Shown: piece after piece, positions 22,437-42,775 of the stretch
Layout: every line of letters starts with the position of its first letter
Position numbering within the stretch: position 1 is the first letter of the stretch
Assembly: GCA_031413515.1 (NCBI GenBank)
Contig: JANOFF010000155.1
Coordinates: 117 to 64,116 of the forward strand
Direction: 5' to 3'
Origin: a bacterium
Lineage (GTDB): Bacteria > Myxococcota_A > UBA9160 > UBA4427
DNA: 64,000 nucleotides
Program-made: the position numbers and the translations under genes
Notes under the pieces: model-generated
Told to the model about the DNA's origin: nothing
The model's database searches: none
Seen by the model: the letters and a program-made list of their open reading frames with translations, nothing else

Positions 22437-22853
22437 CTAGCCGACCACCCGTTTGCGGATCGCTTCGGGTGTGCGGATCAGCAGTCGCCCCTCCGCGTCG
22501 GTCGAGACCAGCACCGTGTGTCCGCGCGCGCTGCGCCGGTCGTGGTCGATGCTCGTGATCTCGTAGTCGAGGCACAGGCGGTTCTCGAAATCGCGGAGCC
22601 AGGCAGATACCTCGAACCGCTCGCCGTACGCGAGAGGGTGGATGTGTCGGCAGCTGGTCTCCGTGATCAGGAACCTGTAGCGGGTCCCGATCAGTTCGCC
22701 GGCGTCGAGCCCGATGGCTCGCAGAAGACGCGTGCGCGCGATCTCGAAGTACTTGAAGTAGTGCCCGTGCCACACGACTCCGAGCTGATCGACGTCGTGG
22801 AACGGCACTTCGAGCGCGACGCGCACTTCGTGCAGTCGGAGGGTCTCGCTCAT
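22437..22853 (-). CDS. 4HBT/YbgC-type hot-dog acyl-CoA/acyl-ACP thioesterase (ApeK-like)
   Basis: 138 aa. VPFHDVDQLGVVWHGHYFKYFE is the typical 4HBT catalytic-Asp block. ATGA overlap with the ammonia-lyase stop. Confidence 0.85.
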   Translation of the reverse strand: MSETLRLHEVRVALEVPFHDVDQLGVVWHGHYFKYFEIARTRLLRAIGLDAGELIGTRYRFLITETSCRHIHPLAYGERFEVSAWLRDFENRLCLDYEITSIDHDRRSARGHTVLVSTDAEGRLLIRTPEAIRKRVVG

Positions 22854-24895: not shown

Positions 24896-25393
24896 ATGCC
24901 GGAGTCGCTCTTTCAGATGCCTGGATTTTCCCGTCGATCCCGTTTTCCCGTGTCCGTGCGGTCCCGACAGAGACTTTCGTGGCTGGCCTCGATTTCGGCC
25001 GCCGTGATGCTCTGCGGAGTGGTCCCGTTCCAGGCCGCTCGGGCGGGTGAGTCCGAGGCCGTCTGCACCGCCAAACCATTCGTCGTGAAGATCCATGCCG
25101 ACTGGTGTGCGACCTGCCGCAAGGTCGATGCAGTCTGGACCCGCCTGGGAACCGAGATGGCCGAACAGGTGAACATCGTCGAGCTGGACGTGTCGGATCG
25201 CGTGGCCTTCGAGGAGTCGAAAGCCACGGCGGATCGGCTCGGGCTCGGCAGCTTCTTCAGCGAATACCGCAGTCGGACGGGCACGATCGCTGTTCTCGAC
25301 TGCAAGTCGCGCGAACCGGTGGCGATCATGAGCGGTGAGGTGGATCTCTCGAAATATCTCGATGCCATCTCGAAAGCGAGTCGCCCGTCTTGA
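24896..25393 (+). CDS. exported thioredoxin-fold protein (WCATC active site)
   Basis: 165 aa. Signal/anchor SWLASISAAVMLCGVVPFQAARA. KIHADWCATCRK is a thioredoxin-type CxxC motif. Confidence 0.75.
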   Translation: MPESLFQMPGFSRRSRFPVSVRSRQRLSWLASISAAVMLCGVVPFQAARAGESEAVCTAKPFVVKIHADWCATCRKVDAVWTRLGTEMAEQVNIVELDVSDRVAFEESKATADRLGLGSFFSEYRSRTGTIAVLDCKSREPVAIMSGEVDLSKYLDAISKASRPS

Positions 25394-26226
25394 ACGCCTG
25401 CGCGTCCGGCCCTGCGGATCCGGGCGAGGTCGATGCTCGCCTGTGGGCTCATCCCGCCTTCCTGGCGACGCTGGTCGTCTCCTCGATCGTGGTCGTCTCG
25501 ATGGCGTACTGGCAGGACACGATCGAATCCGCGCTGTTCGACTTCGAATGGTCGCTCAGCAGCCTGCTTCCACCGGAGCGATTCGAGCGCGTGGGACTGC
25601 TGCTGCTCCCGGCGCTGGGCTTCGGATCCGGTCTGCTCGCCAGCGTCTCTCCCTGCATCCTGCCGCTGGTCCCGCTGAACGTCGCGTACATCGGGGCATC
25701 GGGGAGCAGTGGTCTCCGGTCGATCGGGCTTTCGATCCGTTTCGTGCTCGGTTCGGCGTTGGCGCTCTCGGTGCTCGGTCTGTTCGGTGATCTGGCCGGT
25801 TTCCTGATGATCGACCATCGCGGCCCGATGCTGTTGATCGCCGGCGTCGCGATGTTGTACTTCGGTCTGGCGATCCTCGAAGTCGTTCCCGCGCCGACGC
25901 GGCACCTGCTCGGCTCGAGCCGTCGTGCACTCGGGCCGATCGGTGCCGGCGCGGCGTTCTCGCTGATCACGACGCCGTGCTCGAGCCCGCTGCTCGCCGC
26001 CCTGCTCACGATCTCCGCCGCGCAGGCGGTTGCCGGTTCGGGCGTCGTCGCCATGCTCTCGTTCTCGCTGGGCTACACGATGCTGGTGTTTCTCGGCGGT
26101 GTCTTCGGCGGCGGCCTGTTCGCGTGGGTCCGGCGCTTCGACCTGCAGGCACCGCGGGCGGCGGCGGCGGCATTGATGATCGCCTGCGGGCTCACGATCG
26201 GGTACTCGGGCGCCGGCTGGTTCTAG
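25390..26226 (+). CDS. ccdA: cytochrome c biogenesis CcdA/DsbD-type transmembrane thiol-disulfide electron transporter
   Basis: A TTG start overlaps the thioredoxin-like stop. SVSPCILPLVP and ITTPCSSPLL are the two conserved Cys-Pro helices of the family. Confidence 0.8.
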   Translation: MNACASGPADPGEVDARLWAHPAFLATLVVSSIVVVSMAYWQDTIESALFDFEWSLSSLLPPERFERVGLLLLPALGFGSGLLASVSPCILPLVPLNVAYIGASGSSGLRSIGLSIRFVLGSALALSVLGLFGDLAGFLMIDHRGPMLLIAGVAMLYFGLAILEVVPAPTRHLLGSSRRALGPIGAGAAFSLITTPCSSPLLAALLTISAAQAVAGSGVVAMLSFSLGYTMLVFLGGVFGGGLFAWVRRFDLQAPRAAAAALMIACGLTIGYSGAGWF

Positions 26227-26257: not shown

Positions 26258-27877
26258 TCAGACCGCCGGTCGCATCGCCCCGAACACCGCGCTGAGGTGT
26301 TCGCTTCGCGCCGGATCGGCGCAGACGCCCGGCCGGTCGGGCATCCAGAGCGCGGCTTCGGCTCGGATCTCCAGTTGAAGCGCCTCGGCGAGAGCCAGGT
26401 TGGATTCGAGCTTCGCGAGCAACTCGTCTTCGCCGTACGCGTACTTCAGTTCGGCGTTCATCCGGGCCAGGAACTCGATCTCCGCATAGTCGACGAAGGC
26501 GCCGTGACGCGGCTCGCCGTCTCGCGAGTTGGCCGCCCAATCCCTGAAGAGAGCCTGCATGCGGATGTTCAGCGCGGCGAACCGCTGCATGATCGGGTGT
26601 GTCCGCTCGACGAAGCGCTCGTCGCATAGCCGATCGCTGAAGAAGAGAAGAGCGACGCCCCCCCAGTACATCGCGAAATCCCAGATCACCTTGGTGGTCA
26701 TCACGCGGGGGCTGCCCATGATCGGGTACTGGCGGTGGTAGTTGACGAGATAGGTGCGACCGAGGGATCGATACGCGCGGTCGTATCGCACGGCGACTTC
26801 GGAGATGTCTTCGCGGCGGAGATCCCGTGCGATCAGATCGCCCAGATAGCCGTTGCCGACGCCGATGAAATCGCTTCCGGGCGAGTAGAGGGGATCCAGG
26901 AAGAGACCGGCGTCGCCGACGAGCCCCCAGCGCTCGGCGCTGAATACCTGCTTGGCATCGTGCGAATAGTGGCGCAGCGCCTTGAAGTCGAGCCTCGCGT
27001 GTTCGAGGTTTCGTACGACATCGGCACATTGGGGTTCGTGGCGCTCGAGCCAGTCGAGCGCTCGATCGAAGGACGAGATCTCGGCGAACGAGTGCAGCAC
27101 TGCATCCGTCACGATGCCGACGCTCGTCCGGTCACCGGCGAGCGGGATCAGCCATACCCAGTAGCCCTCGCCCATCAGATGGTTGGTCGAGAGTCGTCGT
27201 GAGTGTTTGAGGCGGGAACTCCATTGCAGATCATCTGACCAATCGTCGAGGTCGATCGGGTGATCGATACGGAACCACGCCGCGTTCGCTGCGTGCCGGC
27301 TGGGCTTGGTGCCGCCGAGTTGTCGCTTCAGCAGCGACGCCCTGCCGCTGGCATCGATCAGCCAGCGACACTGCACCTGCTCGCTTCGTCCGCTTCGTTC
27401 GAGCTCGATCCGGTGATCGCGACCTTCTGCGCCGAGGTGCATCCCGCGCACCGCACAACCACGCTCGAAGTGGACTCCGAGCTCGAGTGCGCGGAAGGCG
27501 AGCGCATTCTCGAACTGACCGCGATCGATCTGGAAGCTCGGCACCGTCAGGAAATGGCTCGGGCCACATTCGAGCCGGCTGGCCACGTCCGTGTTGTCGT
27601 CACTGGAGAAGAGGAAGCGCAGTCCGAACTTCGGGAGTTCGTTCGAAAGCAGGTCGCCGAGACCGAGGACATCCACGAAATAGTGGCTGGCCATCTCGAC
27701 CGAAGACTCGCCGACCTTGTGGGCGGCGAAAGGGGCAGGGGATTCGTTCCTCTCGGCCACCAGCACCTGGATCTGCGGGAGGTTCTGTCGCAGCTGGATG
27801 GCGAGGCACAGCCCCGCCAGGCCTCCGCCGACGATCACGGCGTCATAGCGGTCCTGCAGCGCGGAGGGGATCGTCAT
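26258..27877 (-). CDS. flavin-dependent halogenase
   Basis: 539 aa from MTIPSAL (cat 27875-27877). GxGxxG (VIVGGGLAG), catalytic-Lys block HKVGES, WxWxIP (YWVWLIP) and FxxPxxSxG (FLDPLYSPG). Confidence 0.85.
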   Translation of the reverse strand: MTIPSALQDRYDAVIVGGGLAGLCLAIQLRQNLPQIQVLVAERNESPAPFAAHKVGESSVEMASHYFVDVLGLGDLLSNELPKFGLRFLFSSDDNTDVASRLECGPSHFLTVPSFQIDRGQFENALAFRALELGVHFERGCAVRGMHLGAEGRDHRIELERSGRSEQVQCRWLIDASGRASLLKRQLGGTKPSRHAANAAWFRIDHPIDLDDWSDDLQWSSRLKHSRRLSTNHLMGEGYWVWLIPLAGDRTSVGIVTDAVLHSFAEISSFDRALDWLERHEPQCADVVRNLEHARLDFKALRHYSHDAKQVFSAERWGLVGDAGLFLDPLYSPGSDFIGVGNGYLGDLIARDLRREDISEVAVRYDRAYRSLGRTYLVNYHRQYPIMGSPRVMTTKVIWDFAMYWGGVALLFFSDRLCDERFVERTHPIMQRFAALNIRMQALFRDWAANSRDGEPRHGAFVDYAEIEFLARMNAELKYAYGEDELLAKLESNLALAEALQLEIRAEAALWMPDRPGVCADPARSEHLSAVFGAMRPAV

Positions 27878-28623
27878 CCTGCGAGACCGCCGTTCACCGA
27901 GATCACTTGACCCGTGATGTATGACGCGTCGCGCGAAAAGAGGAAGGCAACGGTCCCAGCCACTTCGTCGGCGCGTCCGAATCGCTTCATCGGAATGAGC
28001 CGGGAGAGCTCTTCTCGGGGAAGCCCGGCCACCATCTCGGTGTCGATCAGCCCCGGGGCGACGCTGTTGACGGTGATGCTCCGGCTCGCGAGCTCGAGCG
28101 ACAGGGACTTCGTCGCGCCGATCAATCCCGCCTTGGAGGCGCTGTAGTTGACCTGCCCGCGGTTTCCGAGAACACCGGCCGCCGAGGCGATCGTCACGAT
28201 CCGACCTCCCCGGCGCGCGCGGACCATGGCCATCAGGAGTGGCCGCAGTACGTTGAAGAAGCCGCCGAGGTTCGTGTCCAGGACGCGATCCCATGCGTCT
28301 TCGCTCATGCCCGGAAACGCGGCATCGGCATGCACGCCCGCATTGCAGACCACGCCGTAGTATGCGCCGCTCTTTGCGATGTCCTCTTCGATCGCCGCCC
28401 GGCAGGCGGTGCGATCCGAAACATCGAAGGCGAGCAGTTCCGCTTCGCCGCCGGCCTTCCGGATCGACTCGGCGGTCTCCTCGGCGTCGTCCTGGCGCGA
28501 TCGATAGTTGATGACGACCGGGTGGCCGGCAGCCGCAAGCCTCTGGGCGATCGCGCGACCGATTCCACGACTGGCACCAGTGACCAAGGCTCGTCCGCTC
28601 AAACCAGGCTCCGACCAGGACAC
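27874..28623 (-). CDS. fabG: 3-oxoacyl-ACP reductase (ApeQ-like)
   Basis: GTG 28623. TGASRGIGRAIA, NAG, the Y-x3-K catalytic motif (YSASK) and a C-terminal ITGQVISVNGG. Its stop overlaps the halogenase start (ATGA). Confidence 0.9.
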   Translation of the reverse strand: MSWSEPGLSGRALVTGASRGIGRAIAQRLAAAGHPVVINYRSRQDDAEETAESIRKAGGEAELLAFDVSDRTACRAAIEEDIAKSGAYYGVVCNAGVHADAAFPGMSEDAWDRVLDTNLGGFFNVLRPLLMAMVRARRGGRIVTIASAAGVLGNRGQVNYSASKAGLIGATKSLSLELASRSITVNSVAPGLIDTEMVAGLPREELSRLIPMKRFGRADEVAGTVAFLFSRDASYITGQVISVNGGLAG

Positions 28624-28977: not shown

Positions 28978-30375
28978 GTGAGAGTCGCCTTCATCTCGGG
29001 CAATCGCGAGAAACTTCCGGACGCGGTGATCCCGCTCGGGATCCTCTGGGTGGCGGCGAGCCTCCCGGATCGCCACGCGAAGATCATGCTGGATCTGTGC
29101 TTCGAAGATTCGCCGCTCGAGTTCGTGCGCGATCGGTTGGTGGCCTTCGCGCCGGAAGTCGTGGCGGTCGGCATGCGCAACATCCAATCCGCCGACTACA
29201 GCGGGACCGCCGACACCATCGCCTACTACGAACAGCTCCTCGCGGCCATCCGCGCGTGTACGGCCGCCCCCATCGTGATGGGCGGGAGCGGGTTCTCCGT
29301 GATGCCGGGCGATCTGATGCGAAGACTGCGGCCCGACTATGGGATCGCGGGCGAGGCCGAGAAGTCGTTCCCGGCGCTCATCGAAGCACTCGAGTCGGGA
29401 GTCGGATTCTCCGCGATCGGCAACCTCCATCGCTTCGTGGACGGAGAACTGGTCTCGAATCCCCCGGCCAGGGGCTTCCTCGACATGGACACGTTGCCCT
29501 TTCCCGATCGATCGCTCGTGGACCCGCGCCACTACGCGGAATACGGCATCGAGGGAGTGCAGACCAAGCGCGGCTGTCCGCTGCGATGCGAGTACTGCAC
29601 CTATCCGATCATCGAAGGACGCGTCGGCCGGACTCGCGCACCGTCGGTCGTGGTCGATGAACTCGAGTCGATCCTCCGGGACCAGCCCGCTCTCAAGCAC
29701 GTCTTCTTCGTCGACTCGGTCTTCAACCTGCCGCGTGCGCATGCCAAATCGGTGTGCCGCGAGATGATCGAGCGCGACGTGAAGATCCCGTGGACCTGCT
29801 ACGCGAATCCACTGGGGTTCGACGCCGAACTCGCGAAGCTGATGAAGGCCGCCGGCTGCGCTGGCATGGAGGTGGGCGCCGATTCGGGCTCGGATCGTCT
29901 GCTCGATGCTCTCGGCAAGGGATTCACGACCGAGCAGATCCGGTCGCTGAGTCGCCTCGCCAAAGAAGAGGGAATCCCCGACTGCCACACCTTCCTGCTC
30001 GGAACGCCGGGCGAAGACTTCGACGACGTCCAGCGTACGCTCGAGTTCATTCTCGACCTCGATCCGTTCAGCGCCATCCTGATGGCCTGGGTGGACGACT
30101 ACGAGGCGCTCGATCCGGAACTGGCGCGCGAGCGCAGGAAGCTGCGCGAGTCCGTTCTCGAACTGCTCGATGCGCGCAAGAGCGAGTTTCCCTGGTGGAG
30201 CATTCCTTCGCTCGGTGTCAACTACGACCCGGCGCTGTTCTCGATCCTGCGCAAGCGGGGATTCCACGGACCGCTCTGGCAGCACATCCGCGGGATGGTC
30301 GCTCCGCGCAGGCGCCGTGCCCGGCGGATCGGTGATCGCGGAAGACAGGTGTCCACCGGAACGTCGAGCACTTGA
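28978..30375 (+). CDS. B12-binding-domain (class B) radical SAM enzyme
   Basis: GTG 28978 (MRVAFISGN...) within ORF 28330..30375. N-terminal Rossmann-like cobalamin domain, then CPLRCEYCTYP (CxxxCxxC). Confidence 0.85.
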   Translation: MRVAFISGNREKLPDAVIPLGILWVAASLPDRHAKIMLDLCFEDSPLEFVRDRLVAFAPEVVAVGMRNIQSADYSGTADTIAYYEQLLAAIRACTAAPIVMGGSGFSVMPGDLMRRLRPDYGIAGEAEKSFPALIEALESGVGFSAIGNLHRFVDGELVSNPPARGFLDMDTLPFPDRSLVDPRHYAEYGIEGVQTKRGCPLRCEYCTYPIIEGRVGRTRAPSVVVDELESILRDQPALKHVFFVDSVFNLPRAHAKSVCREMIERDVKIPWTCYANPLGFDAELAKLMKAAGCAGMEVGADSGSDRLLDALGKGFTTEQIRSLSRLAKEEGIPDCHTFLLGTPGEDFDDVQRTLEFILDLDPFSAILMAWVDDYEALDPELARERRKLRESVLELLDARKSEFPWWSIPSLGVNYDPALFSILRKRGFHGPLWQHIRGMVAPRRRRARRIGDRGRQVSTGTSST

Positions 30376-30446
30376 TGCAGAGCAACGAGGTTGGACGGAC
30401 CCGGTACCGGGCGCAGGAGCGACCGTCACCACTCGAGGAGGATGAA

Positions 30447-30893
30447 ATGCGGGCAGCCAGGAAGGGCCAGGTTTCCGGAAATCGCGCGATGCTGTTGATC
30501 GTCGTCGCGGTGCTGGTCGGATCGGTGGGATCCGTGATTTCGTGTGCGTCCGACGTTCCGCCCACGGTGACGAGGAACTACGGATTCCCGATCGAGAAGA
30601 AGATGGACATCTTCGTGATGACGCCCGACGAGAGGCCCCGGATCACGGAGTCGCTGACGAAAGTCGGTCTCAAACCGGTCGAAGCGCGAACTACGGTCGG
30701 CTACACGCTCGATATCCGGCTGGGCGGCAATCGACGCACACAGGCCTGCGGAAGCGTCCGCAACGTCACGTACATCCTGAGCGGACCGACTGGACGAATG
30801 CTCGTCATCAAGGGACGCGGCCCGACGGGCACCTGTCAGCCGAACATCCTCGACCAGATGAGCGCGAAACTCGCCTCGCTGGCCACGTCCTGA
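30447..30893 (+). CDS. lipoprotein, unknown function
   Basis: Start at MRAARKG (ATG 30447). Signal plus lipobox-like VISCAS. 148 aa. Confidence 0.6.
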   Translation: MRAARKGQVSGNRAMLLIVVAVLVGSVGSVISCASDVPPTVTRNYGFPIEKKMDIFVMTPDERPRITESLTKVGLKPVEARTTVGYTLDIRLGGNRRTQACGSVRNVTYILSGPTGRMLVIKGRGPTGTCQPNILDQMSAKLASLATS

Positions 30894-30936: not shown

Positions 30937-32025
30937 CTATGAGGGCGGGTCGTGTCTGACCGATGTGAGCACGGATCGCCCGATCAGGAAGACGACGCCG
31001 GGCAGCATCCAGAGGATCTCGCGAAGTCGGACCGCGAGTCCCACCGCCAGGCCGACATCCGCGGGATAGCCGAGCATCTCGAACATCCACATCTGTGAGC
31101 CCTCGAGCACGCCGACCCCGGCCGGTATCGGGAACATGTGCGCGGCGCCGGTGGCGAACATCGCGGCCACCACCGTGATGGGGGTCGTGGGGAGATCGAA
31201 CGCCTCGAGGAGGCACACGAACTCCACGACCACCAGCAGATTCGCGAAGAGCCCGGCCGCGAAGGCCACGCCCATCCTGCGGTGCTGTCTCGACAACACC
31301 GCCGTCGATGATTCGGCGTGCTCGATGTGGTCGCGTTGCGCATCGACGATCGGCCAGCGAGAAGCGCCCGTGCTCCGCATCAAGGCGCTGACGAGCCCGG
31401 CTCCACTGCGGAGGCGTCGCACCGCGATGACGACGCCGAGTGTGAGGGCGATCGTCCCGACCGCAATGCTCACGAGCACGTTCTCCAGCCGGGGCACACC
31501 GTACTGCAACAGCATCACGGCGAACATGATGCTGAATGGCGTCGCCGCACCGATCTCGAGCGTCCGATCGACCACCGTACTCGCGATCGAATGGCCGGCC
31601 GAGAGTCCAGAGCGACTGCTGAGCCACGCTCGCAGCGGATCGCCACCGAGCTTCGCGCTCGGGATCAGCACGGCCAGGGTGTGTGCGGCGCTTCGATACA
31701 GGGTCAGGATCGGCAGGCTGGGCGGTGTCGAGAGCCCGCCGATGATGTACCGCCAGCGCCATGACAGACAGACGATCGTCGCGGTCGTCGCGATCGCGAA
31801 GCTCGCGAACCAGCCCGGCGAGAAGTCGAGCCGCAGGATTGCCACGGCCTGCGAACCATACGCCCGCATCACGTATGCGAGCACCCCGACGCCCAACGCC
31901 AGGTTGCCCCAGATGAACAGCCGCGAGCGGGTGAGCAGCCGTGAGCCGGTGAACAGCCGTGAGCGAATGGACAGCCGTGAGCGGGATCCAGGAGAACCCG
32001 AGCCGTTCGCTTGCCTGGACGTCAC
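30937..32025 (-). CDS. UPF0104 / flippase-like (LPG-synthase TM-type) membrane protein
   Basis: 362 aa with about 8 TM helices. KLGGDPLRAWL and GVGVLEGS blocks are typical of this family. Arg/Ser/Leu hexapeptide repeats at the N-terminus. Confidence 0.7.
   Translation of the reverse strand: MTSRQANGSGSPGSRSRLSIRSRLFTGSRLLTRSRLFIWGNLALGVGVLAYVMRAYGSQAVAILRLDFSPGWFASFAIATTATIVCLSWRWRYIIGGLSTPPSLPILTLYRSAAHTLAVLIPSAKLGGDPLRAWLSSRSGLSAGHSIASTVVDRTLEIGAATPFSIMFAVMLLQYGVPRLENVLVSIAVGTIALTLGVVIAVRRLRSGAGLVSALMRSTGASRWPIVDAQRDHIEHAESSTAVLSRQHRRMGVAFAAGLFANLLVVVEFVCLLEAFDLPTTPITVVAAMFATGAAHMFPIPAGVGVLEGSQMWMFEMLGYPADVGLAVGLAVRLREILWMLPGVVFLIGRSVLTSVRHDPPS
31913..31984. repeat. imperfect 18-bp tandem repeat x4 at the 5' end of the UPF0104 gene
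   Basis: ATGAACAGCCGCGAGCGG / GTGAGCAGCCGTGAGCCG / GTGAACAGCCGTGAGCGA / ATGGACAGCCGTGAGCGG. Encodes the RSRLxx repeats. Confidence 0.85.
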
Positions 32026-32044
32026 GCCGGCACGGTCCGCCCCC

Positions 32045-33232
32045 TCAGAACGCGGGGGTGGGACTCGTCGCCTGGACCGGTGCGTATCCGTCGATCGTCG
32101 CCCCGATGGCGAGGCACTCGCCGAGAATCACCTCGAAGGGTCGCTGATCCACGACCTCGAACTGGCTGGCCTCGATTTCGAATCGCGCGCCGGCTTCGTC
32201 GTACGGCGCGACACCGGGCGAACCCGCCGTGAGCACGCCGATGATCGGCAGCAGGCGCTGCTGGATCTCGCGCGCCTCACGGGTCGAGATCACGACCTTC
32301 GCATCGGGGAAGCGCGCGGAGAGCAGGGCGACCACGCGTGCGAGATCGTCGTCGCTGACGCCGCGACGATGCTCGGCCCCGCTCGCCTTCCGGAGGCGCG
32401 GCAAGCTGATGTAGACCTGCAGGCCGAGCGCGGTGAGGTGTCGGACGTGCGCGCAGAGAGTGATCAGCTCGTAGGCGAGGTCGTGGTTGAGCCCGAGCAG
32501 GACACCAGGATTGACGGACCGCATGCCCGCTTCGGCAGCGCGATCGAAGTTCTGCAGCCTGCGCTCGAATCCGCAACGCGGATTGTCCGGCGTCGACCCC
32601 ATGAACTTGGCGTAGACGGTCGGGTCGTAGGTCTCCTGGAACGTGCACATCGTGACGTGCGGCGCGAGGGCGTCATCTCCGTCGCGGGCGATCCCGGTCA
32701 GCAGTCCCGCGTACTCGTCGGCATCGATCGATCCGACGTTGATCAGGACGTGCGAGAAGCCTCGATCGAGTGCAGCGCGCGTCGCCGCTGCGGCGCGCTT
32801 CAGCATGGTCTGGCGTCGTGCTCCGTGGCGATACTCGCCGGAGAGCACGGCCACTGCACGGATGCCGCGGCGATGCAGGATGTCGAGTTGCTCGTCGACC
32901 GTGGCCTGATCGGCGGTCTCGCGCTTCAGCGCGCGATTGTTCGACCGCATGCCGCACATCAGACACTCGCCGTCGCATTCGTTGGTGATGTAGAGCGGCG
33001 AGAAGGTCTCGATCTGCGGTGGTCCGACGGGACGCCGGGCTCGCGCGATCCCGATCAACTCATCCGTCGGCAGATCCTTCGAGAGGAGGAGAGTCGCCAC
33101 CGAGACGTCATCCAGCGCCTCACCCGAGCGAAGTCGCGCGGCCAGTGCCGGTGCTGCGCCGTCCCGGGCGCGTGCGGCAGCCAGTGCGCTGTCTTTCGCG
33201 ATCGCGTCGGAATCAATCGAGAAGTGGGGCAT
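32045..33232 (-). CDS. ThiH/HydG-family radical SAM enzyme (aromatic amino-acid lyase-like)
   Basis: 395 aa. Cluster motif ITNECDGECLMCG. Downstream blocks FQETY, LPRLRK and ISTREA resemble ThiH-type TIM-barrel radical SAM lyases. No C-terminal second-cluster Cys motif (so unlike HydG). Confidence 0.75.
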   Translation of the reverse strand: MPHFSIDSDAIAKDSALAAARARDGAAPALAARLRSGEALDDVSVATLLLSKDLPTDELIGIARARRPVGPPQIETFSPLYITNECDGECLMCGMRSNNRALKRETADQATVDEQLDILHRRGIRAVAVLSGEYRHGARRQTMLKRAAAATRAALDRGFSHVLINVGSIDADEYAGLLTGIARDGDDALAPHVTMCTFQETYDPTVYAKFMGSTPDNPRCGFERRLQNFDRAAEAGMRSVNPGVLLGLNHDLAYELITLCAHVRHLTALGLQVYISLPRLRKASGAEHRRGVSDDDLARVVALLSARFPDAKVVISTREAREIQQRLLPIIGVLTAGSPGVAPYDEAGARFEIEASQFEVVDQRPFEVILGECLAIGATIDGYAPVQATSPTPAF

Positions 33233-33244
33233 TCGGGCTAGATA

Positions 33245-34681
33245 TCACCGAGTGGGACGCTTGGCCACTCGCAGGTCACGTCGCAGTCTGCGTTTGCGCA
33301 GTGCGCCGCGCACCCCACGGGACAGCATCTCGAGCAGTTCGCGCAGGCCGATGCTCGGCCACTCGATCAGGCCCTGGCTGATCGAGATCAGCTGACGTCC
33401 CGGACGCGTCCAGTTGCTCACGAGCACCGGCTTGTAGACGCTCGGGCTCCGCCCGATCTGACCGACGTCCAACACCGAATTCGGAAGTGTGCACTCCACC
33501 TCGACCGGGATCTCTCCGAGATGCGAGCGCAGTGCGTCCAGGGCCACAGCGGTGCGCGTCGAGCGGGGATCAGGCACCTCGATGCGGAAAACCAGCCGAT
33601 CCGGCATCGCGATCGCGAAGAATATCGAGCTGTCGAGGGCATCGGCGGCGGCCGCACCGGCCTCGATGATCTCGTAGGGGTAGAGGCCTCGTCCGGCCAG
33701 CTCGACGATCTCGCTTTCGCGGCCGAGCACGATGATGCCGGGACGCGGATCGCCACACGCGCAGGGCGCGAGCCGCCGGACGATGTCGCCGGTCTCGAAG
33801 CGCACGAGAGGGCTGCCCTCGATGCCGAGCGTCGTGACGATCAGCCGGGCCTCCTCGCCGATCGCGGCCTGCTCGTCGCGGTCGAGCCTCTGAAACTCGC
33901 AGTGCGACAGTTCGGTCTCGAGATGCAGCGTCCGCTCGCGACACCCCGTGCCGAGCAGCATCGTCTCGGTCGATCCGTAGAGTTCGATCACCCGGGCGCC
34001 ACCGTAGATCCGTTCGATGCGCTTCTGCAGAACCGGCGGCAGGGGCGAGCCGCCGAGGAAGAACGTCTCGAACGCCGTCGCTCTGGCGGGATCGAGTCCG
34101 CGCGCCCTGGCGATCTGCGCCAGGATGATCGGCTCGATCGGAAAGCCCGCGAGCACGTGCGCGCCGGTGCGCTGCGCCAGTTCGAGTGCGCGCGGGAACG
34201 GCACGTCCCAGTTGATGTTGCCCGCGGGTATCGAGACCCCGCCGCCCTGCTGCGCGACCAGTTGGATGAGATGCGCGGGTGCGGCCATGAAGGGAAAGCG
34301 GTTCAACACGATCTTGCCCGCTGCGAACACGTCGGGATGTCGCTCCGCGATCCGCCGGGCATTGCGCGTCAAGTCATCACTCGTGAGCCAGGTCGAGTTG
34401 GCTCCGCCCGCACCGCCCGAACTGGTGCCCGAAGTCTCGCCGTAGTGGCAGATCCGTTCGATCGGCACCGCGCGCGTGCCGGTCAGCCCGGCTCGCTGGA
34501 GATCGGCCCGCGTCGTCAGGGCGATCCGTCCGAATGCTTCGAGATCGGTCAGCTGGACGTCGCGCAACCGGTCGGCATACAGCGCGCTGTGTCGCGCGCG
34601 GGCGACTGTCTGGCGGAGAGCGTCGAGCACTTCCATGCCCGGACCCGAAATGCTAACAGTCCGCTCGATCGCGCTGATCAT
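33245..34681 (-). CDS. PaaK / coenzyme F390 synthetase-like adenylate-forming enzyme
   Basis: 478 aa from MISAIE (cat 34679-34681). ANL blocks (YGSTE, FETGD, a Lys-containing tail). The P-loop is expanded and Gly/Ser-rich (ETSGTSSGGAGGANS). Confidence 0.75.
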   Translation of the reverse strand: MISAIERTVSISGPGMEVLDALRQTVARARHSALYADRLRDVQLTDLEAFGRIALTTRADLQRAGLTGTRAVPIERICHYGETSGTSSGGAGGANSTWLTSDDLTRNARRIAERHPDVFAAGKIVLNRFPFMAAPAHLIQLVAQQGGGVSIPAGNINWDVPFPRALELAQRTGAHVLAGFPIEPIILAQIARARGLDPARATAFETFFLGGSPLPPVLQKRIERIYGGARVIELYGSTETMLLGTGCRERTLHLETELSHCEFQRLDRDEQAAIGEEARLIVTTLGIEGSPLVRFETGDIVRRLAPCACGDPRPGIIVLGRESEIVELAGRGLYPYEIIEAGAAAADALDSSIFFAIAMPDRLVFRIEVPDPRSTRTAVALDALRSHLGEIPVEVECTLPNSVLDVGQIGRSPSVYKPVLVSNWTRPGRQLISISQGLIEWPSIGLRELLEMLSRGVRGALRKRRLRRDLRVAKRPTR

Positions 34682-34746
34682 CAAACGGAATCCTGCACCA
34701 TATGCGTCGAGCTGGTCAAGTACGCCGCACCCGTCGGGCGGACGCC

Positions 34747-36480
34747 GTGCGGCTGATCGGCATGCTGCTCGCGCTGCTCGCGCCGTATGCCGCACACTCG
34801 GATGCCTGGGATGAGTCGCGAGCGCGTCTGATCGATCCGCTCAACGCGGCGCTGCATCGCCATTGGCCCGCGGAACTGAAGAACCGGAACATCGACGCGC
34901 TGCTCCGCCTCTACTCGACCGAGACGGGGACGGGGATCACGTGGCAGGATCCGGAGCGGGTCGAGAGCCCGGGCACCGAGCCGACGCTGCGCTGGTCGAC
35001 TGCGCCGGGTGAACGGGGCGAGCGGAGCGACGAGTCGATCCGCGACCGATACACGAAGTTGCTCGAATACTTCGAATCGATCGACAAAGCCGAACTGCGC
35101 ATCGAGCGGGTCGATTGGCGCCACCCCGGGCCTCTCGGCCACCGGGCGACCGTGCACGCGGTCATCAAGGGCACGAGTCCCGAGGGCGAACTCCGGCAGA
35201 TGGAGCAGTGGGCCACGCTGTACGTCCGCTTCTTCGATCCCTTCTGGGAGATCACCTCTGAAGAAGTCACCGGTCGTACGATGGTGACGCGCGCGACTCC
35301 GCGGTTCACGTACCGGACCGACGCTGCCGGGATCGAGAACGTGCACGCGAACGTCGCGTCCCCGCCGTTCCGGTTGTTCGGCAAGAACGACGACAATCCC
35401 GTCCGTCAGGCGTCGGGTGTGGCGGTGGGTGACGCCGACGGTGATGGCTGTGAGGATCTCGTTCTCGCGGGCAGCCCATTGCTTTCCTTCCATCGCAGCC
35501 GCTGCGATGGCACCTATGAAGACGCCACCGCCTCCTCAGGGCTCCCCTTCCCCTATCCCGCAGCGGCTTCCGGCGTGGTCTTCTTCGACTACGACAACGA
35601 TGGAAGGCAGGATCTTTTCGTCACCGCGGTCAAGGGCGGCGATCGTCTGTTCCGCAATGTGTCGGAGGTGGACTCTCGCGATGGGACGCGCCGCGCCTGG
35701 CAGTTCGTCGACGTGACCGGGCAAGCGGGTCTCGAGCCCGGTCGATGGGGCAGCATGCCCGTCATCGCGGACTACGATCGCGACGGATATCTCGATGTGT
35801 ACGTCTCGCGCATGGGCGACCACGAGCACACCGCGCCGCGCCCGCCCTATGACGCGCGTAACGGCGTGCGCGGAACGCTGTTGCGCAATCGCGGAGACGG
35901 CACGTTCGAAGACGTTTCCCGTGCGGCCGGTGTCGACAGTCCGGGTTGGGACATGGCCGCTGCGTGGGGGGACTACACGGGAGATGGCTGGCCCGACCTC
36001 TACGTCGCCAACGAGTTCGGCAACAACCGCCTGTTTCGCAACGAGCAAGACGGGACGTTCACGGATCAGACCGCCGTCGCGGGAGTCGAGGATGGCGGCT
36101 CGGCGATGGGGACGTCATGGGGAGACGTCGATGGCGATGGTGATCTCGACCTCTTCGTCTCCGGGATGCACGCCAACTCGGGGTGGACGCTCTTCCATCC
36201 CGATTTTCCGATGCCGATCCCTTGGTACTACCGGTTCCTCGGTCGCTTCACCGACGCCGTGCAGATCCAGTCCGACATCCTCACCGACCGGCTTTCCCGG
36301 GGCAGCGCGCTGTTCATGAATGCTGGCGACGGGACATTCGCCGACATCAGCGACAGCGCGGGTATCCGCGATGGTCAGTGGGGCTGGGGAAGTGCGTTCC
36401 TCGACTACGACAACGACGGCGATCTCGATCTCTATGCGGTGAACGGGTTCGTGACCGGACCCATAGAAGACGACGTTTGA
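34747..36480 (+). CDS. CRTAC1-family FG-GAP/VCBS repeat protein, N-terminal 578 codons (ends at in-frame TGA)
   Basis: GTG 34747 gives the signal peptide VRLIGMLLALLAPYAAHS (ORF opens at 34702; ATG at 34762). Repeated DxDxDGxxD Ca-binding FG-GAP motifs (GDADGDGCEDL, DYDNDGRQDL, DYDRDGYLDV, GDVDGDGDLDL, DYDNDGDLDL). Confidence 0.8.
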   Translation: MRLIGMLLALLAPYAAHSDAWDESRARLIDPLNAALHRHWPAELKNRNIDALLRLYSTETGTGITWQDPERVESPGTEPTLRWSTAPGERGERSDESIRDRYTKLLEYFESIDKAELRIERVDWRHPGPLGHRATVHAVIKGTSPEGELRQMEQWATLYVRFFDPFWEITSEEVTGRTMVTRATPRFTYRTDAAGIENVHANVASPPFRLFGKNDDNPVRQASGVAVGDADGDGCEDLVLAGSPLLSFHRSRCDGTYEDATASSGLPFPYPAAASGVVFFDYDNDGRQDLFVTAVKGGDRLFRNVSEVDSRDGTRRAWQFVDVTGQAGLEPGRWGSMPVIADYDRDGYLDVYVSRMGDHEHTAPRPPYDARNGVRGTLLRNRGDGTFEDVSRAAGVDSPGWDMAAAWGDYTGDGWPDLYVANEFGNNRLFRNEQDGTFTDQTAVAGVEDGGSAMGTSWGDVDGDGDLDLFVSGMHANSGWTLFHPDFPMPIPWYYRFLGRFTDAVQIQSDILTDRLSRGSALFMNAGDGTFADISDSAGIRDGQWGWGSAFLDYDNDGDLDLYAVNGFVTGPIEDDV

Positions 36481-36486
36481 CTCGAG

Positions 36487-37071
36487 ATGATGGAAGGCGT
36501 CGGTCGACGCCTCGGATCGCGAACCGGATTCCTGCTCGACATTGGCACCCACAGCCTGAATGGCCGTGAGCGCAACGTCCTGTTCCGCAACGACTCCGGT
36601 ACAGCGAGCGAAGGCATCACATTCACCGAGGTCGCCTGGGTGAACGGAGCCGATCGGATCGAGGACGGGCGTGGGCTCGCTGTCCTCGATGCCGATCAGG
36701 ACGGGCATCTCGACCTCGCACTCCGCAATTATCGGATGCCGGCCGGTCTGCTGATCAACGGCTCGGACGGCGGGCACTGGATCGGCTTCGAACTCGAGGG
36801 TTCGAGCTCGAACCGCGATGCGATCGGCGCGCGCATCCGGGTGCGGACGTCCGAGCATTGGCAGTCGAGGGAAGTGGCCGCGGGTGGTGGATACCTGTCG
36901 GGAAGCAGCTTGCGACAACACTTCGGCCTCGGAGCCCGATCCCGGGTCGACGAGGTGTTGATCGATTGGCCGTCGGGTGAGCAGACTCGGCTGCTCGATC
37001 TCGACCTCGATCGGATCCATGCGATCAAGGAAGCCGGCGGCCACGCGAAGGCCTCTGACCAGCAGCCCTGA
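36487..37071 (+). CDS. ASPIC/UnbV C-terminal domain segment, same reading frame as the preceding ORF
   Basis: 194 aa. RERNVLFRN, one more FG-GAP (DADQDGHLDL), then an UnbV/ASPIC block (NRDAIGARIRV...GGGYLSGSS..HFGLG). No Shine-Dalgarno before ATG 36487. Separated from the upstream ORF only by TGA 36478-36480 plus two codons. Confidence 0.7.
   Translation: MMEGVGRRLGSRTGFLLDIGTHSLNGRERNVLFRNDSGTASEGITFTEVAWVNGADRIEDGRGLAVLDADQDGHLDLALRNYRMPAGLLINGSDGGHWIGFELEGSSSNRDAIGARIRVRTSEHWQSREVAAGGGYLSGSSLRQHFGLGARSRVDEVLIDWPSGEQTRLLDLDLDRIHAIKEAGGHAKASDQQP
36489..36518 (+). other. SECIS-like stem-loop 3' of the in-frame TGA
   Basis: Upper stem 36495-36501 / 36506-36512 (AGGCGTC / GACGCCT, 7 bp). Apical loop GGTC (36502-36505). 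A at 36494 is bulged. Lower stem GAT / ATC (36489-36491 / 36516-36518). Confidence 0.3.
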
Positions 37072-37091: not shown

Positions 37092-37859
37092 TCAGCCGAC
37101 GATGTCGTGGTCGAGACACCAGACCGGTTCGCGTGGGTCGCCCGCGAACTCGAGTGCGACGGTACCCGTTCGTTGCTCGACGATGTGTTCGATCAGGGGC
37201 ACCGCGGCCGCCACGTGAAGGGATCCGAACGGCGCCCGCAGCGCCACCGGATCCACGTTCGCACGCCGGATCCGGCTCAGCACGGAGGTCGCTCCTTCGG
37301 GTCTCGGCGAGAGCAGCAGCGACAGTGCGAGTGGGACGCTCGAATCCGGCAGCTCGAATGGCGGTAGCAGCGGCTCGTCGGCGATCACGAGGATCACGTC
37401 GCGATCCCAAGCTTCGAGCATGCACGCCGCCTCGATGATCGCTGAGGCAACGAGTTCGGCACCGCCGGTGAGGGTCGTGGACGGCGAGCGGTTGCCCGTC
37501 GCGATCGACGCGTAACCGCTCGCGGTGTTGTGCACCGAGTTGTGGAACTTGGTCGGAGACAGCTTGCCTTCACCGTGCTGCATCATCTCGAGCAGTCCGA
37601 TCGCCATCGAATGCTCGCCGTGCGCAGTCGCCCAGACACTCGCCAGCTCGGTCGGATCGGCGTCGCCCATGCGCGCCGCCTGTTGCAGGACTTCGATTCC
37701 CATCCGCGTGAGCGGAGTCGCGCGTCGACGAAGCGCCCCGGCCAGGAGCGGCGCCTCCGGTGTGCTCGCGGTGGCATCGAGGTCCCGTGCGCACCACGCC
37801 TTGGGGTTCGCGTAGCCGGTCGTCCAGAAGCCGACCCCGCGCACGTACACGGGCTTCAT
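37092..37859 (-). CDS. beta-ketoacyl synthase N-terminal-like / chain-length-factor-type protein (ApeC-like)
   Basis: 255 aa from MKPVYVRGVG (ATGA overlap with the KS stop). KS-like fold with no active-site Cys motif. The FHNSVHNTASGY block is typical of APE CLF-like partners. Confidence 0.8.
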   Translation of the reverse strand: MKPVYVRGVGFWTTGYANPKAWCARDLDATASTPEAPLLAGALRRRATPLTRMGIEVLQQAARMGDADPTELASVWATAHGEHSMAIGLLEMMQHGEGKLSPTKFHNSVHNTASGYASIATGNRSPSTTLTGGAELVASAIIEAACMLEAWDRDVILVIADEPLLPPFELPDSSVPLALSLLLSPRPEGATSVLSRIRRANVDPVALRAPFGSLHVAAAVPLIEHIVEQRTGTVALEFAGDPREPVWCLDHDIVG

Positions 37860-39040
37860 CGGTCGGCTCCGAAGACGAGGCTCACGTTGCTGCCGCCAAA
37901 TGCGAACGAGTTGCTGAGACCGACGTGAAGGTTCCGCTCGCACACACTCGTCGGCACGTTGAGTCCGAGGCCCGGCTCGAGCGGATCGGCACCGACGCTC
38001 GCGGGCGTCCAGCCACCGCGCAGGGCTTCGAGGACGAATATCGCTTCCATCGATCCGGCCGCTCCGAGCGTATGACCGACGTAGCCCTTGGTCGAGACCA
38101 CGATCGGGTCCGCGTCCGGTCCGAGTGCCGTGCGGATCGCCCGGGCCTCCATCGCATCATTGAACTGGGTTCCAGTGCCGTGGGCATTCAGATAATCGAC
38201 GGATCCGGGTGCGACTCCGGCATCGGCCAGCGCAGCCCGCATGGCCGCCGCCGCGCCATGGCCCTCGGGATCCGGTGTGGTCATGTGGTGCGCGTCCGAA
38301 CTCTCTCCGACACCGAGCAGTCTCGGCCCGTCGCCCCTGCGTTCGAGCAGCGCGAACGCAGATCCTTCACCGATGTTGATGCCGCAGCGTTCGCTGCTGA
38401 ACGGGCGCGACGGTCCCTCGGACAGGAGACCCAGTGAACGGAATCCTCGCAGGGTGAGCTGACAAAGACTGTCGGCACCACCGACCAGGACCGCATCCAC
38501 CAGATCGGCGTCGAGCCAGCGCTTCGCACTCGCGAACACTTTGCCGCTGGACGCACAGGCATTCGACACGACAGCCGCAGGACCAGTCGCACCCGTCAAT
38601 GCGCGCAGCGCGCGAATCAGTCCGTCCGCTGAGCCACGGGACAGCACGTCGAAGCCGGCGGGAATCGAGCCGGTCCGTGCGTGAGCGGTGAAGGCCGCCT
38701 CGATCTCGTCCATGGCCGCGGTACTCGATCCCACGCAGATCCCCACGCGCTGCGCGCCCCAGCGTGCGAGTGCGCCGACCAGGTGATCGGACATCTCGCC
38801 GAGTGCGCGTTGCACGAAGCGGTTGTTGCGCGAGTCGAAGGCGGCGAGTCGGCCTTCGAGCGGCGGAAGGTCCGCGGTGACCACTCCGCACGCTGTCACG
38901 AAGCCGGTGCCTTCGGGCGGCGCGGAGAGCGCCGGTCGGCCGCGGCGAAGGCCGGCCATCACCTCTGCCGTGGTGGTTCCGAGCGAGTTGACGATCGACC
39001 AGCTCGTGACCGGATAGCCGATTGTTCCGCGATCACCCAC
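37856..39040 (-). CDS. beta-ketoacyl-ACP synthase (FabB/F-like, ApeO-like)
   Basis: 394 aa with a GTG start. Active-site NACASS Cys, HMTTP and NAHGTGT His residues, and C-terminal NSFAFGGSN. Confidence 0.9.
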   Translation of the reverse strand: MGDRGTIGYPVTSWSIVNSLGTTTAEVMAGLRRGRPALSAPPEGTGFVTACGVVTADLPPLEGRLAAFDSRNNRFVQRALGEMSDHLVGALARWGAQRVGICVGSSTAAMDEIEAAFTAHARTGSIPAGFDVLSRGSADGLIRALRALTGATGPAAVVSNACASSGKVFASAKRWLDADLVDAVLVGGADSLCQLTLRGFRSLGLLSEGPSRPFSSERCGINIGEGSAFALLERRGDGPRLLGVGESSDAHHMTTPDPEGHGAAAAMRAALADAGVAPGSVDYLNAHGTGTQFNDAMEARAIRTALGPDADPIVVSTKGYVGHTLGAAGSMEAIFVLEALRGGWTPASVGADPLEPGLGLNVPTSVCERNLHVGLSNSFAFGGSNVSLVFGADR

Positions 39041-39127: not shown

Positions 39128-39799
39128 TCAACGCGATCCTCCCTCCGGTTTCGTGTCGTGCTTCGCGGGCCCCTCTTCGTCGAGGATCACGATGGAAGCG
39201 TCGTACCCGCACCATTCGTTCTGGATCTCGATGCGCCCGCTGCGGTCGGTCGCCGGCGGCGGAGAGTAGTTGATCGTGACACCCACGACAGCCGGGGCGG
39301 GATCGGTCCGGATGAACTCGCGCCTCCGTCGATCGCCGCTGCGTGATTCACGCAGCGTCTCGCCGGCCCATTCCGTATCCCGCACCGTGTCGGCCTGGAC
39401 GGCGCTCGCGGGCTCGATCCAATGGCTCCGATACAGCGCGTCCACCACCCAGAGGGCGACGTGTCGAAGCATTGGCGAAGGCGTCGGCTCGACCTGGAAG
39501 TCCCGATCGATCTGGCGCACTGCGAAGAGCCGCGCTCCGGTCGGTGAGAGCCCGACGACGATCAACTGATCCTGATGCGCGCGGGCGACGATGTCGAAGC
39601 CGACGCGCTTCCCGTGACTCCGGATCTCGATCTGCGCGCGCAGGTTGGCCTCGTCGCCGAGCAACTGACTGGCGACAGGCACCACCGGGCATCCCGGCTC
39701 GCCAGTCGGCGGGATCCCGGTCGCGCACCCGGAAAGGCACGAGAACAAGAGCACTCCGACCCACAGGAGGCCATGCGGCCGCGATCCGACGACACTCAT
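39128..39799 (-). CDS. lipoprotein of the DUF3261 type found in APE clusters (ApeN-like)
   Basis: Start at MSVVGSRPHGLLWVGVLLFSCLSGC (lipobox), with ATGA overlap to the MMPL stop. Position between MMPL and KS matches APE synteny. Confidence 0.65.
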   Translation of the reverse strand: MSVVGSRPHGLLWVGVLLFSCLSGCATGIPPTGEPGCPVVPVASQLLGDEANLRAQIEIRSHGKRVGFDIVARAHQDQLIVVGLSPTGARLFAVRQIDRDFQVEPTPSPMLRHVALWVVDALYRSHWIEPASAVQADTVRDTEWAGETLRESRSGDRRRREFIRTDPAPAVVGVTINYSPPPATDRSGRIEIQNEWCGYDASIVILDEEGPAKHDTKPEGGSR

Positions 39800-42123: not shown

Positions 42124-42775
42124 TCGGTTTCTGGGGCGGATCGATCGAGAACACTCCACTGCTCCCATCCGCGTCGAAGTCCAATCCCGTCTCGACGTTC
42201 GAGAACTTCGAGTGTGTGGCATCGCCGTTGGTCTCGAGAGTGTCCATCTCGGTCACCGTCGCCCCGACACCCTTCACGCGGATTCGCACGATGATCGCCC
42301 GCAGATCGGCGGCGCGCGGGTCGAGGTCCAGTTCCCAGGCCTGCCCGTCGGCGTCGAAGCTCAGTTCGTATCGCTCGCGAAGGCCCGGCAGGTCGCCGCG
42401 GAGCAGCACCATGATGTTGCTGATCAGCGTGTAGGCGATGTCGCTCGAACGCAGGTCGACCGAGCGTCGCCCCGTCTCGTCGATCACATCGGCTCGCATC
42501 CCGCGAACCACGGCCGTCGAGTGGCCCGGTTGTGTGGTCACCCGCGCGATCCGATCCGGAGGCGCGAAGTACAGGGTTCCGCGGGATTCGATCGGAGCCG
42601 CGAGGATCGAGATCATCCGCGTCTCGACGAAGTCGGCTCGCACCCCCCCGCTCTGCTGCAGCAGGAGCATCAATGCATCGAGCGACATCGATGTCTGCGG
42701 GGTCTCGTTCGACCCTGCGGACGACGAGATCAGCAGACTCCACATCAAGACGGCGAGTCCGAGGCGTCGCTTCAA
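42116..42775 (-). CDS. LolA-like outer-membrane lipoprotein carrier family protein (ApeL-like)
   Basis: C-terminal 219 aa of ORF 42116..43021. TTG 42775 gives a signal peptide (KRRLGLAVLMWSLLISSSAG). FVETRMISILAAPIESRGTLYFAPPDRIA resembles the LolA fold. Start uncertain. Confidence 0.6.
   Translation of the reverse strand: MKRRLGLAVLMWSLLISSSAGSNETPQTSMSLDALMLLLQQSGGVRADFVETRMISILAAPIESRGTLYFAPPDRIARVTTQPGHSTAVVRGMRADVIDETGRRSVDLRSSDIAYTLISNIMVLLRGDLPGLRERYELSFDADGQAWELDLDPRAADLRAIIVRIRVKGVGATVTEMDTLETNGDATHSKFSNVETGLDFDADGSSGVFSIDPPQKPNE

Follow-up and report, generated by a model that had tools for sequence, protein, structure and literature searches.

A NosL-type radical SAM protein, a PaaK-like ligase and a UPF0104 membrane protein form a conserved trio in aryl-polyene-type clusters of uncultured bacteria

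Introduction

To our knowledge, the NosL-type radical reaction, in which tryptophan is fragmented and recombined, has so far been known only from the thiopeptide antibiotics of actinomycetes. In the nosiheptide and nocathiacin systems the gene for NosL or NocL, which makes 3-methyl-2-indolic acid from L-tryptophan, is paired with that for NosI, an adenylate-forming enzyme of the classical ANL type. A comparable pairing is found in the 64,000-nucleotide (nt) stretch of DNA analysed here (the window; 65% G+C), which is part of contig JANOFF010000155.1 from an uncultured freshwater-sediment bacterium. Three neighbouring minus-strand genes in this window, called the trio below, encode a PaaK-like adenylate-forming ligase of 478 amino acids (aa; 33245-34681), a NosL-type radical S-adenosylmethionine (SAM) protein of 395 aa (32045-33232) and an integral membrane protein of the UPF0104 or MprF-flippase type of 362 aa (30937-32025). 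Here the partner ligase is of the PaaK type, and the thiopeptide context (precursor peptide, NosI/J/K, NosJ-like carrier protein) is absent from the locus. Whereas the NosL systems belong to actinomycetes, the trio occurs in Myxococcota and Binatia, where it sits with its flippase-like protein in a lipid cluster of the aryl-polyene (APE) type, complete in the window at approximately 22.4-48.3 kb by Pfam and NCBIfam assignment of about 50 open reading frames (ORFs).

Other described systems share single elements with this locus. ThiH and HydG belong to the same superfamily as the radical SAM protein, with the same overall fold and the same Arg and Tyr substrate anchors, and hydrogen abstraction from the amino group would be expected in all of them; the C-terminal auxiliary-cluster domain of HydG is missing from the trio protein. 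Canonical APE clusters (ApeA-R of Xenorhabdus and Escherichia coli) and flexirubin clusters have in common with the window a ketosynthase (KS) and chain-length factor (CLF), a ketoreductase (KR), two dehydratases, an acyl carrier protein (ACP), an AMP-ligase, a family 2 glycosyltransferase (GT2), acyltransferases and the LolA, MMPL and DUF3261 proteins. The flexirubin cluster also contains an ammonia-lyase with a 4-methylideneimidazole-5-one (MIO) group and, within a polyene pigment cluster, a PaaK-length ligase (FlxY) to which the trio ligase is remotely related. As published, however, neither type of cluster contains a NosL-like radical SAM protein or a PF03706 protein. MprF and standalone UPF0104 proteins such as HpnL share with the trio membrane protein the PF03706 domain over the whole model, conserved intramembrane charged residues and a lipid-biosynthesis context. 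MprF, in contrast, is an aminoacyl-tRNA-dependent synthase with a C-terminal aminoacyl-transferase domain; the trio has no such domain and an adenylating enzyme as partner. Thus, each component of the trio belongs to a known superfamily, and the logic of NosL plus an adenylating enzyme is already known from thiopeptides. Full-text literature searches returned no report of a NosL-like radical SAM protein in an APE or lipid cluster, nor of the trio.

A sister clade of NosL

The radical SAM protein consists of PF04055 and BATS domains and carries the cluster motif ITNECDGECLMCG (CX3CX2C). Its NCBIfam scores rank NosL (TIGR04158, 259 bits) above ThiH (TIGR02351, 146.5 bits) and HydG (98 bits). These scores lie below the equivalog cut-offs of both ThiH (380 bits) and NosL (400 bits), and the latter shortfall marks the family as a relative of NosL and not as NosL itself. 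The clade is not covered by any curated model of NCBIfam or Pfam. Against the sequences of solved structures in the PDB, NosL scores 247 bits and ThiH and HydG approximately 91-94. The AlphaFold (AF2) model (predicted local distance difference test, pLDDT, 86.5; predicted template modelling score, pTM, 0.89) agrees with this order, as Foldseek returns NosL as the best match (TM 0.80-0.85, 37-41% identity) ahead of HydG and ThiH (TM 0.74-0.78, 21-25% identity).

Two primary markers distinguish tyrosine from tryptophan enzymes: an Arg at R+6, six residues past the substrate Arg (R306 in ThiH), and a one-residue insertion, or beta-bulge, ending strand beta-8; in addition, ThiH Glu158 touches the substrate carboxylate (PMC9046217). 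Neither the R306-type Arg nor the insertion, which NosL also lacks, is found in the window protein or its 78 relatives. Instead, all 78 family members have Gln at R+6, matching NosL Q329, and the Glu158 position is occupied by Asn in the window protein and its relatives, as in NosL. The family retains the equivalents of NosL Arg323 and Tyr90, and further NosL-type features are present in CDGECLMC, STRE, PLY and the comparison of GVLTAGSPGVAPY versus GVISPGSPDVAPY.

In a neighbour-joining tree of 103 sequences (ThiH and HydG as root, 50 bootstraps), the family is monophyletic in 48 of 50 replicates. The NosL proteins group with a sequence from Thalassomonas sp. RHCl1 and without the family in 50/50, which places the family beside the NosL clade and not within it. 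Over the trimmed alignment, sequences of the trio-linked subclade A share a mean identity of 63%; the corresponding means are 51% between subclades A and B, 37% between the family and the NosL proteins and 58% among the NosL proteins themselves. The Thalassomonas gene (L075, 9899-11089; 36-39% identity), from a cultured gammaproteobacterium, stands alone between genes for an NMT1-domain hybrid histidine kinase and a glutathione S-transferase, with no thiopeptide or APE genes nearby.

Gene context was covered by Pfam and NCBIfam scans of about 50 window ORFs supported by their G+C bias at third codon positions (GC3). Among these ORFs, which leave out a few of less than 150 aa, there is no ThiG/S/F, HydE/F or CofG/H. 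This agrees with the first-pass annotation of the window, which had listed thiamine, hydrogenase-maturation and F420 genes as missing; thiG, thiS and thiF are likewise absent from the related annotated loci examined. Judged by its sequence and predicted structure, the radical SAM protein falls into an undescribed clade whose sister is NosL, not ThiH. The first-pass annotation had called it ThiH-like: its assignment to the aromatic amino-acid lyases holds, but the type is that of NosL according to profile scores, PDB scores, tyrosine markers, fold and tree, and these same results disfavour cleavage of tyrosine. The phylogenetic placement and structure prediction that it proposed as checks put the protein outside ThiH, as a sister to NosL with the nearest fold. 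A strict ThiH identity is ruled out by the profile cut-off, the markers, the tree and the gene context.

Arrangement and conservation of the trio

The trio genes are co-directional and separated by only 12 and 19 nt, as first noted and as seen again in the ORFs and at both junctions. The ligase TGA is followed after 12 nt by the radical SAM ATG, a spacing that suggests translational coupling, and the radical SAM TGA is followed after 19 nt by the GTG of the membrane-protein gene. The longest ligase ORF spans 33245-34795, but the ATG at 34681 is preferred, giving 478 aa against 452-494 aa in homologues. For the radical SAM gene, GC3 had pointed to a start at 33100; the ATG at 33232 was preferred, since alignments with homologues begin at the first residue that it encodes. 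The GC3 bias typical of genuine genes is seen in all three ORFs. Contigs from an independent DNA run span both junctions at an even depth of approximately 20x, and the arrangement is therefore no assembly artefact. In a sediment metatranscriptome, a single 251-nt contig is identical to part of the ligase gene (window 33427-33665). It is too thin to speak for transcription as an operon and, as DNA carry-over is possible, gives a weak hint of expression of the trio in situ.

A search for radical SAM homologues returned more than 800 matches at E <=1e-20. The best 120 are all at least 61% identical and all metagenomic, and the few that are named are assigned to Deltaproteobacteria or Myxococcota. 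At 50% clustering the family forms two or three full-length clusters, and only 49 of 1.8 billion representatives reach E <=1e-30; at 90% identity the clade contains hundreds of clusters. The gene order ligase, radical SAM, PF03706 is kept in annotated loci at 65-71% identity. Scanning 185,579 species genomes produced 69 loci, all but one from metagenome-assembled genomes, which are labelled Myxococcota, Deltaproteobacteria or Binatia. Members of the clade itself come from such assemblies only.

Synteny in these genome loci was assessed by tblastn for subclade A, counting only loci with enough flank. The ligase gene lies directly upstream of the radical SAM gene in 27/30 loci and the membrane gene directly downstream in 33/37; the exceptions have a subclade-B-like arrangement or are merely partial matches. 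Recurrent neighbours are genes for a B12-radical SAM protein, a KR, a halogenase, a thioredoxin/DsbD pair, the ammonia-lyase with a 4HBT thioesterase, FG-GAP/UnbV proteins and the APE core. The reciprocal test, a metagenome scan seeded by the ligase alignment, finds a NosL-like gene adjoining the ligase in 53 of 53 loci whose downstream flank measures 700 nt or more, and the membrane gene as well in 31 of 31 with 2.2 kb or more. In subclade B the order is broken, yet genes for a ligase related at 34-39% identity and for a PF03706 protein at 28-30% are nearby, among KS, KR and B12-radical SAM genes. The trio is thus an effectively obligate unit inside APE-type clusters, across two phylum-level groups. 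Conservation of the three genes next to APE genes, which the first-pass annotation had proposed as a check, is thus seen, and the counts support its view that the radical SAM protein is functionally tied to the adjoining adenylating enzyme (53/53 when seeded by the ligase, 27/30 when seeded by the radical SAM protein).

Outside the APE setting, two metagenome-assembled genomes resembling Polyangiaceae (L059, 4540-11158; L065, 5105-11167) carry a subclade-B NosL-like gene in a different pathway. Its neighbours encode a classical ANL ligase with AMP-binding_C, a PF12831 oxidoreductase dependent on flavin adenine dinucleotide (FAD), a SAM methyltransferase and an AAT(PF03417)-TPR protein, which is an AAT-like acyltransferase. 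Members of the radical SAM clade have thus come together with an adenylating enzyme on more than one occasion. With this third context, in which the adenylating enzyme is of another class, and with the adjacency counts, the analogy to thiopeptides drawn in the first-pass annotation is apt. In two further loci (L062, 9080-11173; L067, 9131-11050) the NosL-like region lies in an ORF of 640-700 aa, which may reflect an N-terminal extension or a fusion, and is flanked by genes for a POR-type 2-oxoacid:ferredoxin oxidoreductase and Pyr_redox/Fer4 proteins.

The ligase and the membrane protein

The ligase matches PF00501 (33.9 bits) and NCBIfam models of the PaaK, F390 and BagE types. The highest-scoring of these is BagE/FevW (NF041217), aligned over the full length at 114 bits, below the cut-off of 800. 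PaaK (TIGR02155) gives 34 bits against a cut-off of 646, and FlxY (NF053551) gives 72 bits against 520, over residues 217-341 only. Identities as PaaK, F390 synthetase or FlxY are ruled out by profile score. The top PDB matches are 9s3l, AjiA1 and NatL2, and the matches 9s3l, 6wuq, 6siw and 4r1l support a place in the wider PaaK-like fold group. The initial assignment to PaaK/F390-type adenylate-forming enzymes is therefore upheld in its general form by Pfam, NCBIfam and PDB alike. NatL2, of the PaaK family, first makes an aryl adenylate and from it an ester, its C-terminal extension blocking coenzyme A (CoA) chemistry (PMC7204872).

Like the ester- or amide-forming enzymes BagE/FevW, NatL2 and AjiA1, the trio ligase has a PaaK-type core, the invariant catalytic Lys of YKP and a C-terminal extension. 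The motif YGETSGTSSGGAGGANSTW is in place, and SSGT.G, YGSTE, TGD and the invariant Y-K-P are kept. Across 41 homologues YGSTE, TGD and YKP are conserved together with a tail of the form 'EGMIEWP...RRRRL', and every homologue, including those linked to subclade B, continues for approximately 60 residues past Y-K-P. The conserved tail of approximately 45 aa in the trio ligase is, however, unrelated in sequence to the extension of these enzymes; it is amphipathic and polybasic, which suggests a membrane surface and not a strand-swapped dimer lock. Its features are an E-W-P motif, which is conserved, the segment of greatest amphipathicity in the whole protein (the maximum hydrophobic moment falls at residues 445-462) and a polybasic end, and it may serve as a membrane-surface anchor. 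The expanded Gly/Ser-rich P-loop, which the first-pass annotation had singled out as unusual, is indeed present in the window ligase. Most of the 41 homologues, however, have SSGT[ST]-G..N[ST]; the 4-residue insertion is peculiar to the lineage of the window, and the P-loop is ruled out as a functional hallmark of the family.

The membrane protein, described at first as flippase-like and of the UPF0104 type, retains that description. It matches PF03706 (UPF0104 / LPG_synthase_TM) over the whole model at residues 39-337 (97.4 bits, cut-off 33.4) and TIGR00374 at 54.4 bits (cut-off 43.2), with HpnL at 61 bits under its cut-off of 196. Conserved charged residues are R90, R111, D153, R154, E157, E268, E308 and R333. 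PF03706 is the only Pfam domain in its 362 aa, and the C-terminal lysyl-phosphatidylglycerol synthase domain of MprF is absent. A PDB sequence search with the protein gave zero matches.

The aryl-polyene cluster around the trio

The APE core set, defined as in bioRxiv 10.1101/2020.12.19.423268, is complete between 27874 and 48251, with KS and CLF, ACP, ApeI/ApeP dehydratases, KR and MMPL transporter. Downstream of the trio on the minus strand, an MIO aromatic amino-acid ammonia-lyase (22850-24412; PF00221, 512 bits) with a GASGDL motif lies next to a 4HBT thioesterase (22437-22853, minus; 4HBT_2), confirming the early observation of such a lyase in the locus. Its best NCBIfam match is the BagA/FevW tyrosine ammonia-lyase (TAL; 461 bits, below cut-off).

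Histidine ammonia-lyases carry S-H at the selectivity switch, TALs H-L and phenylalanine ammonia-lyases F-L. The window enzyme has NLLRFHGVG, or 'F-H', at the position that we take to be this switch.

Between the lyase and the trio are a plus-strand thioredoxin and DsbD_TM (CcdA-like) pair (24950-26226; PF00085, PF02683), found at the same place in clade-A loci, an FAD-dependent halogenase (26258-27877, minus; PF04820/PF01494) and a FabG-type KR (27874-28587, minus; PF13561/PF00106), both of which recur beside the trio. Convergent with the trio on the plus strand is a B12-binding radical SAM gene of the 'lipid biosynthesis' type (28978-30375; PF02310 and PF04055), whose best model is TIGR04072 (lipid biosynthesis, ladderane-type; 268 bits, cut-off 360). 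This gene is present in 14/16 clade-A genome loci with at least 6 kb on both flanks and in 15/18 metagenome loci of at least 9 kb. Together with the UPF0104 gene it presumably resembles hpnJ-hpnL of hopanoid clusters. Its stop overlaps by 4 nt with a small lipoprotein-like ORF of 173 aa (30372-30893, plus), which has a signal peptide ending in ...VGSVISC, no family match in Pfam or NCBIfam and a conserved position in clade-A loci at 33-50% identity.

On the other side, an FG-GAP repeat protein and a UnbV_ASPIC protein (34747-37071, plus; PF13517, PF07593) are divergent from the ligase and hold this position in many loci. Minus-strand genes follow for a CLF-like KS (37092-37859), a KS (37856-39040; PRK09185 match, 400 bits), DUF3261 (39128-39799), MMPL (39796-42093) and a LolA-like protein (42116-42874). 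The plus-strand APE core block at 43224-48251 encodes an acyltransferase, an ACP (43930-44199), an ApeH-like AMP-ligase fused to an ApeI dehydratase (44196-46013; best NCBIfam 4-coumarate-CoA ligase TIGR02372, 76 bits), a GT2, a lysophospholipid-type acyltransferase and an ApeP dehydratase.

A proposed pathway and its alternatives

We propose that the trio is one operon that supplies a second aromatic building block and attaches it to an APE-type membrane lipid, a reading to which we assign a probability of approximately 40%. The substrate bound by the radical SAM enzyme in the first step would be an aromatic L-amino acid, with tryptophan as the most likely one and tyrosine, as phenolate, not expected. 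The conserved Arg of STRE and Tyr of PLY would hold the substrate, and the 5'-deoxyadenosyl radical would abstract a hydrogen from its amino group. By analogy with NosL, the side chain would then be fragmented and recombined to 3-methylindole-2-carboxylate or a close analogue. The PaaK-like ligase, whose pairing with the radical SAM gene is observed, would adenylate this aryl acid. The ligase's amphipathic, basic tail would keep the enzyme at the surface of the inner membrane, where it would pass the aryl group, as an ester, to a hydroxyl on the APE lipid or on the lipid's head group instead of loading the polyene synthase. The UPF0104 protein would present or flip the lipid, much as the flippase domain of MprF does, for export by the MMPL, LolA and DUF3261 proteins. 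The likely role of the B12-radical SAM enzyme and the halogenase is to tailor one of the aromatic rings. Lipids able to act as acceptors are available, as the known products of APE pathways are GalNAc-phosphoglycerol lipids, which have free hydroxyls and a phenolic head (bioRxiv 10.1101/2020.12.19.423268). Decoration is favoured over a replacement starter because a separate starter route of ammonia-lyase, ApeH-type ligase and ACP is present. In addition, the characterised enzymes nearest to the ligase activate aromatic acids as adenylates and go on to make esters instead of loading ACPs, which suggests a fit with decoration.

Several points weigh against this proposal. FlxY, the PaaK-length ligase of the flexirubin cluster, is a proven CoA ligase for a starter, 4-coumarate (PMC3992019), and a paper of 2009 pointed out ligases of the PaaK/F390 type in related 'ladderane-like' type II fatty-acid synthase clusters with no reported NosL-like gene (PMC2649909). 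In two loci, L014 and L025, the trio is accompanied by the 4HBT thioesterase, but the ammonia-lyase is missing from its usual position, which would fit a starter role for the trio. For the membrane protein, the single-sequence AlphaFold model reaches a pLDDT of only 40.7. Finally, strand-end residues by the active site of the radical SAM protein differ (for example, RVYFNIGS in NosL and HVLINVGS in the family). Together with the 37% identity to NosL proteins and the score below the NosL equivalog cut-off, this means that the substrate and the cleaved C-C bond could differ from those of NosL. A bolder and unlikely form of the proposal makes the trio a split, tRNA-independent analogue of MprF, in which an indole carboxylic acid from tryptophan would be esterified onto the APE glycolipid or phospholipid by the membrane-tethered ligase and the product flipped to the outer leaflet by the UPF0104 protein.

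Among the alternatives, the one that survives best was put forward in the first-pass annotation. The aryl acid from the radical SAM enzyme would be activated by the ligase as a CoA thioester or on an ACP, and would enter the polyene synthase as a non-canonical starter or as an alternative aryl head. The obligate pairing of the two genes fits such a role, as do the FlxY precedent and the loci L014 and L025, and metagenome loci of at least 9 kb contain no ammonia-lyase within 6 kb. Starter supply in the window, however, is already covered by the MIO lyase and the ApeH-type ligase fused to ApeI beside the ACP, and the genes next to the trio include none for a carrier protein. The partial match to FlxY is surpassed by those to the ester-forming BagE, AjiA1 and NatL2 (PMC7204872), and neither the conserved membrane-type tail nor the flippase-like partner would have a part to play. 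The starter claim is thus unsupported in the window, and we regard it as somewhat unlikely.

Alternatively, the aryl acid could be placed on a bulk phospholipid such as phosphatidylglycerol and the product flipped by the UPF0104 protein, so that the trio would be a split MprF analogue merely co-located with APE genes. PF03706 is the transmembrane/flippase family of MprF, the ligase tail is of a membrane type and the compact trio moves as a block between differing flanking arrangements. Against this, the trio lies among KS, KR, ACP, B12-radical SAM, acyltransferase or APE export genes in every clade-A locus that is long enough, and the rearranged genes of subclade B remain inside KS/KR/B12-radical SAM clusters. 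Such independence from the APE pathway is distinctly improbable.

The ligase could also be the equivalent of FlxY and activate the product of the ammonia-lyase (4-coumarate or cinnamate), leaving the radical SAM protein with an unrelated tailoring or cofactor role. The partial FlxY match and the proven 4-coumarate:CoA ligase activity of FlxY (PMC3992019) would agree with this, and lyase and ligase both have their best NCBIfam matches in proteins of the bagremycin pathway, BagA and BagE. Yet the ligase is never found without a NosL-like gene (53/53) and often without a detectable ammonia-lyase in its flank, the 12-nt spacing suggests that ligase and radical SAM protein are translated together, and members of the NosL-like clade have ligases of other classes as partners elsewhere, all of which makes this role very unlikely. 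Least probable by far is a true tyrosine lyase with ThiH/HydG chemistry, releasing p-cresol and dehydroglycine for a thiazole, a CO/CN ligand or the like: most homologues are named '2-iminoacetate synthase' by Joint Genome Institute (JGI) pipelines and the fold and Arg/Tyr anchors are those of ThiH too, but the ThiH score (146 bits against 380), the missing R306, beta-8-end insertion and E158, the tree position apart from ThiH and HydG, and a window free of thiG/thiS/thiF and hyd genes leave it hardly any chance.

The clade described here is a sister group of NosL in APE-type lipid clusters of abundant uncultured sediment and soil bacteria, tied to an aryl-acid ligase and an MprF-type protein. 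If the favoured decoration of the APE lipid is correct, a rare NosL-type radical reaction reaches further than thought, and a new decoration or head group is predicted on a very widespread family of bacterial pigment lipids. It would also provide a first functional handle on standalone UPF0104 proteins and on the PaaK/F390-type ligases of 'ladderane-like' fatty-acid clusters, noted since 2009. The split-MprF form, if true, would add aryl-decorated envelope lipids derived from tryptophan as a new lipid class, spread widely among uncultured Myxococcota and Binatia. [quoted passage not shown]

Other features of the window

An Rfam scan of the window found no riboswitch or other RNA. At window 36326-36626, within the FG-GAP/UnbV region, read and contig depth is 6-7 times that of the surroundings in a DNA run and an RNA run alike, with many joints and loose ends. 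The peak probably arises from a conserved FG-GAP/UnbV motif that recruits sequence from many other organisms. Straight after the ApeP dehydratase gene is a 729-aa ORF (48328-50517) whose coding bias is strong and which belongs to no family in Pfam or NCBIfam. Outside the cluster the window encodes a cytochrome oxidase, Rieske oxygenases, amidohydrolases and regulators. Two separate COX3-like ORFs of 177 and 173 aa (window 11062-12601), with a 128-aa ORF between them, lie downstream of COX2 and COX1.

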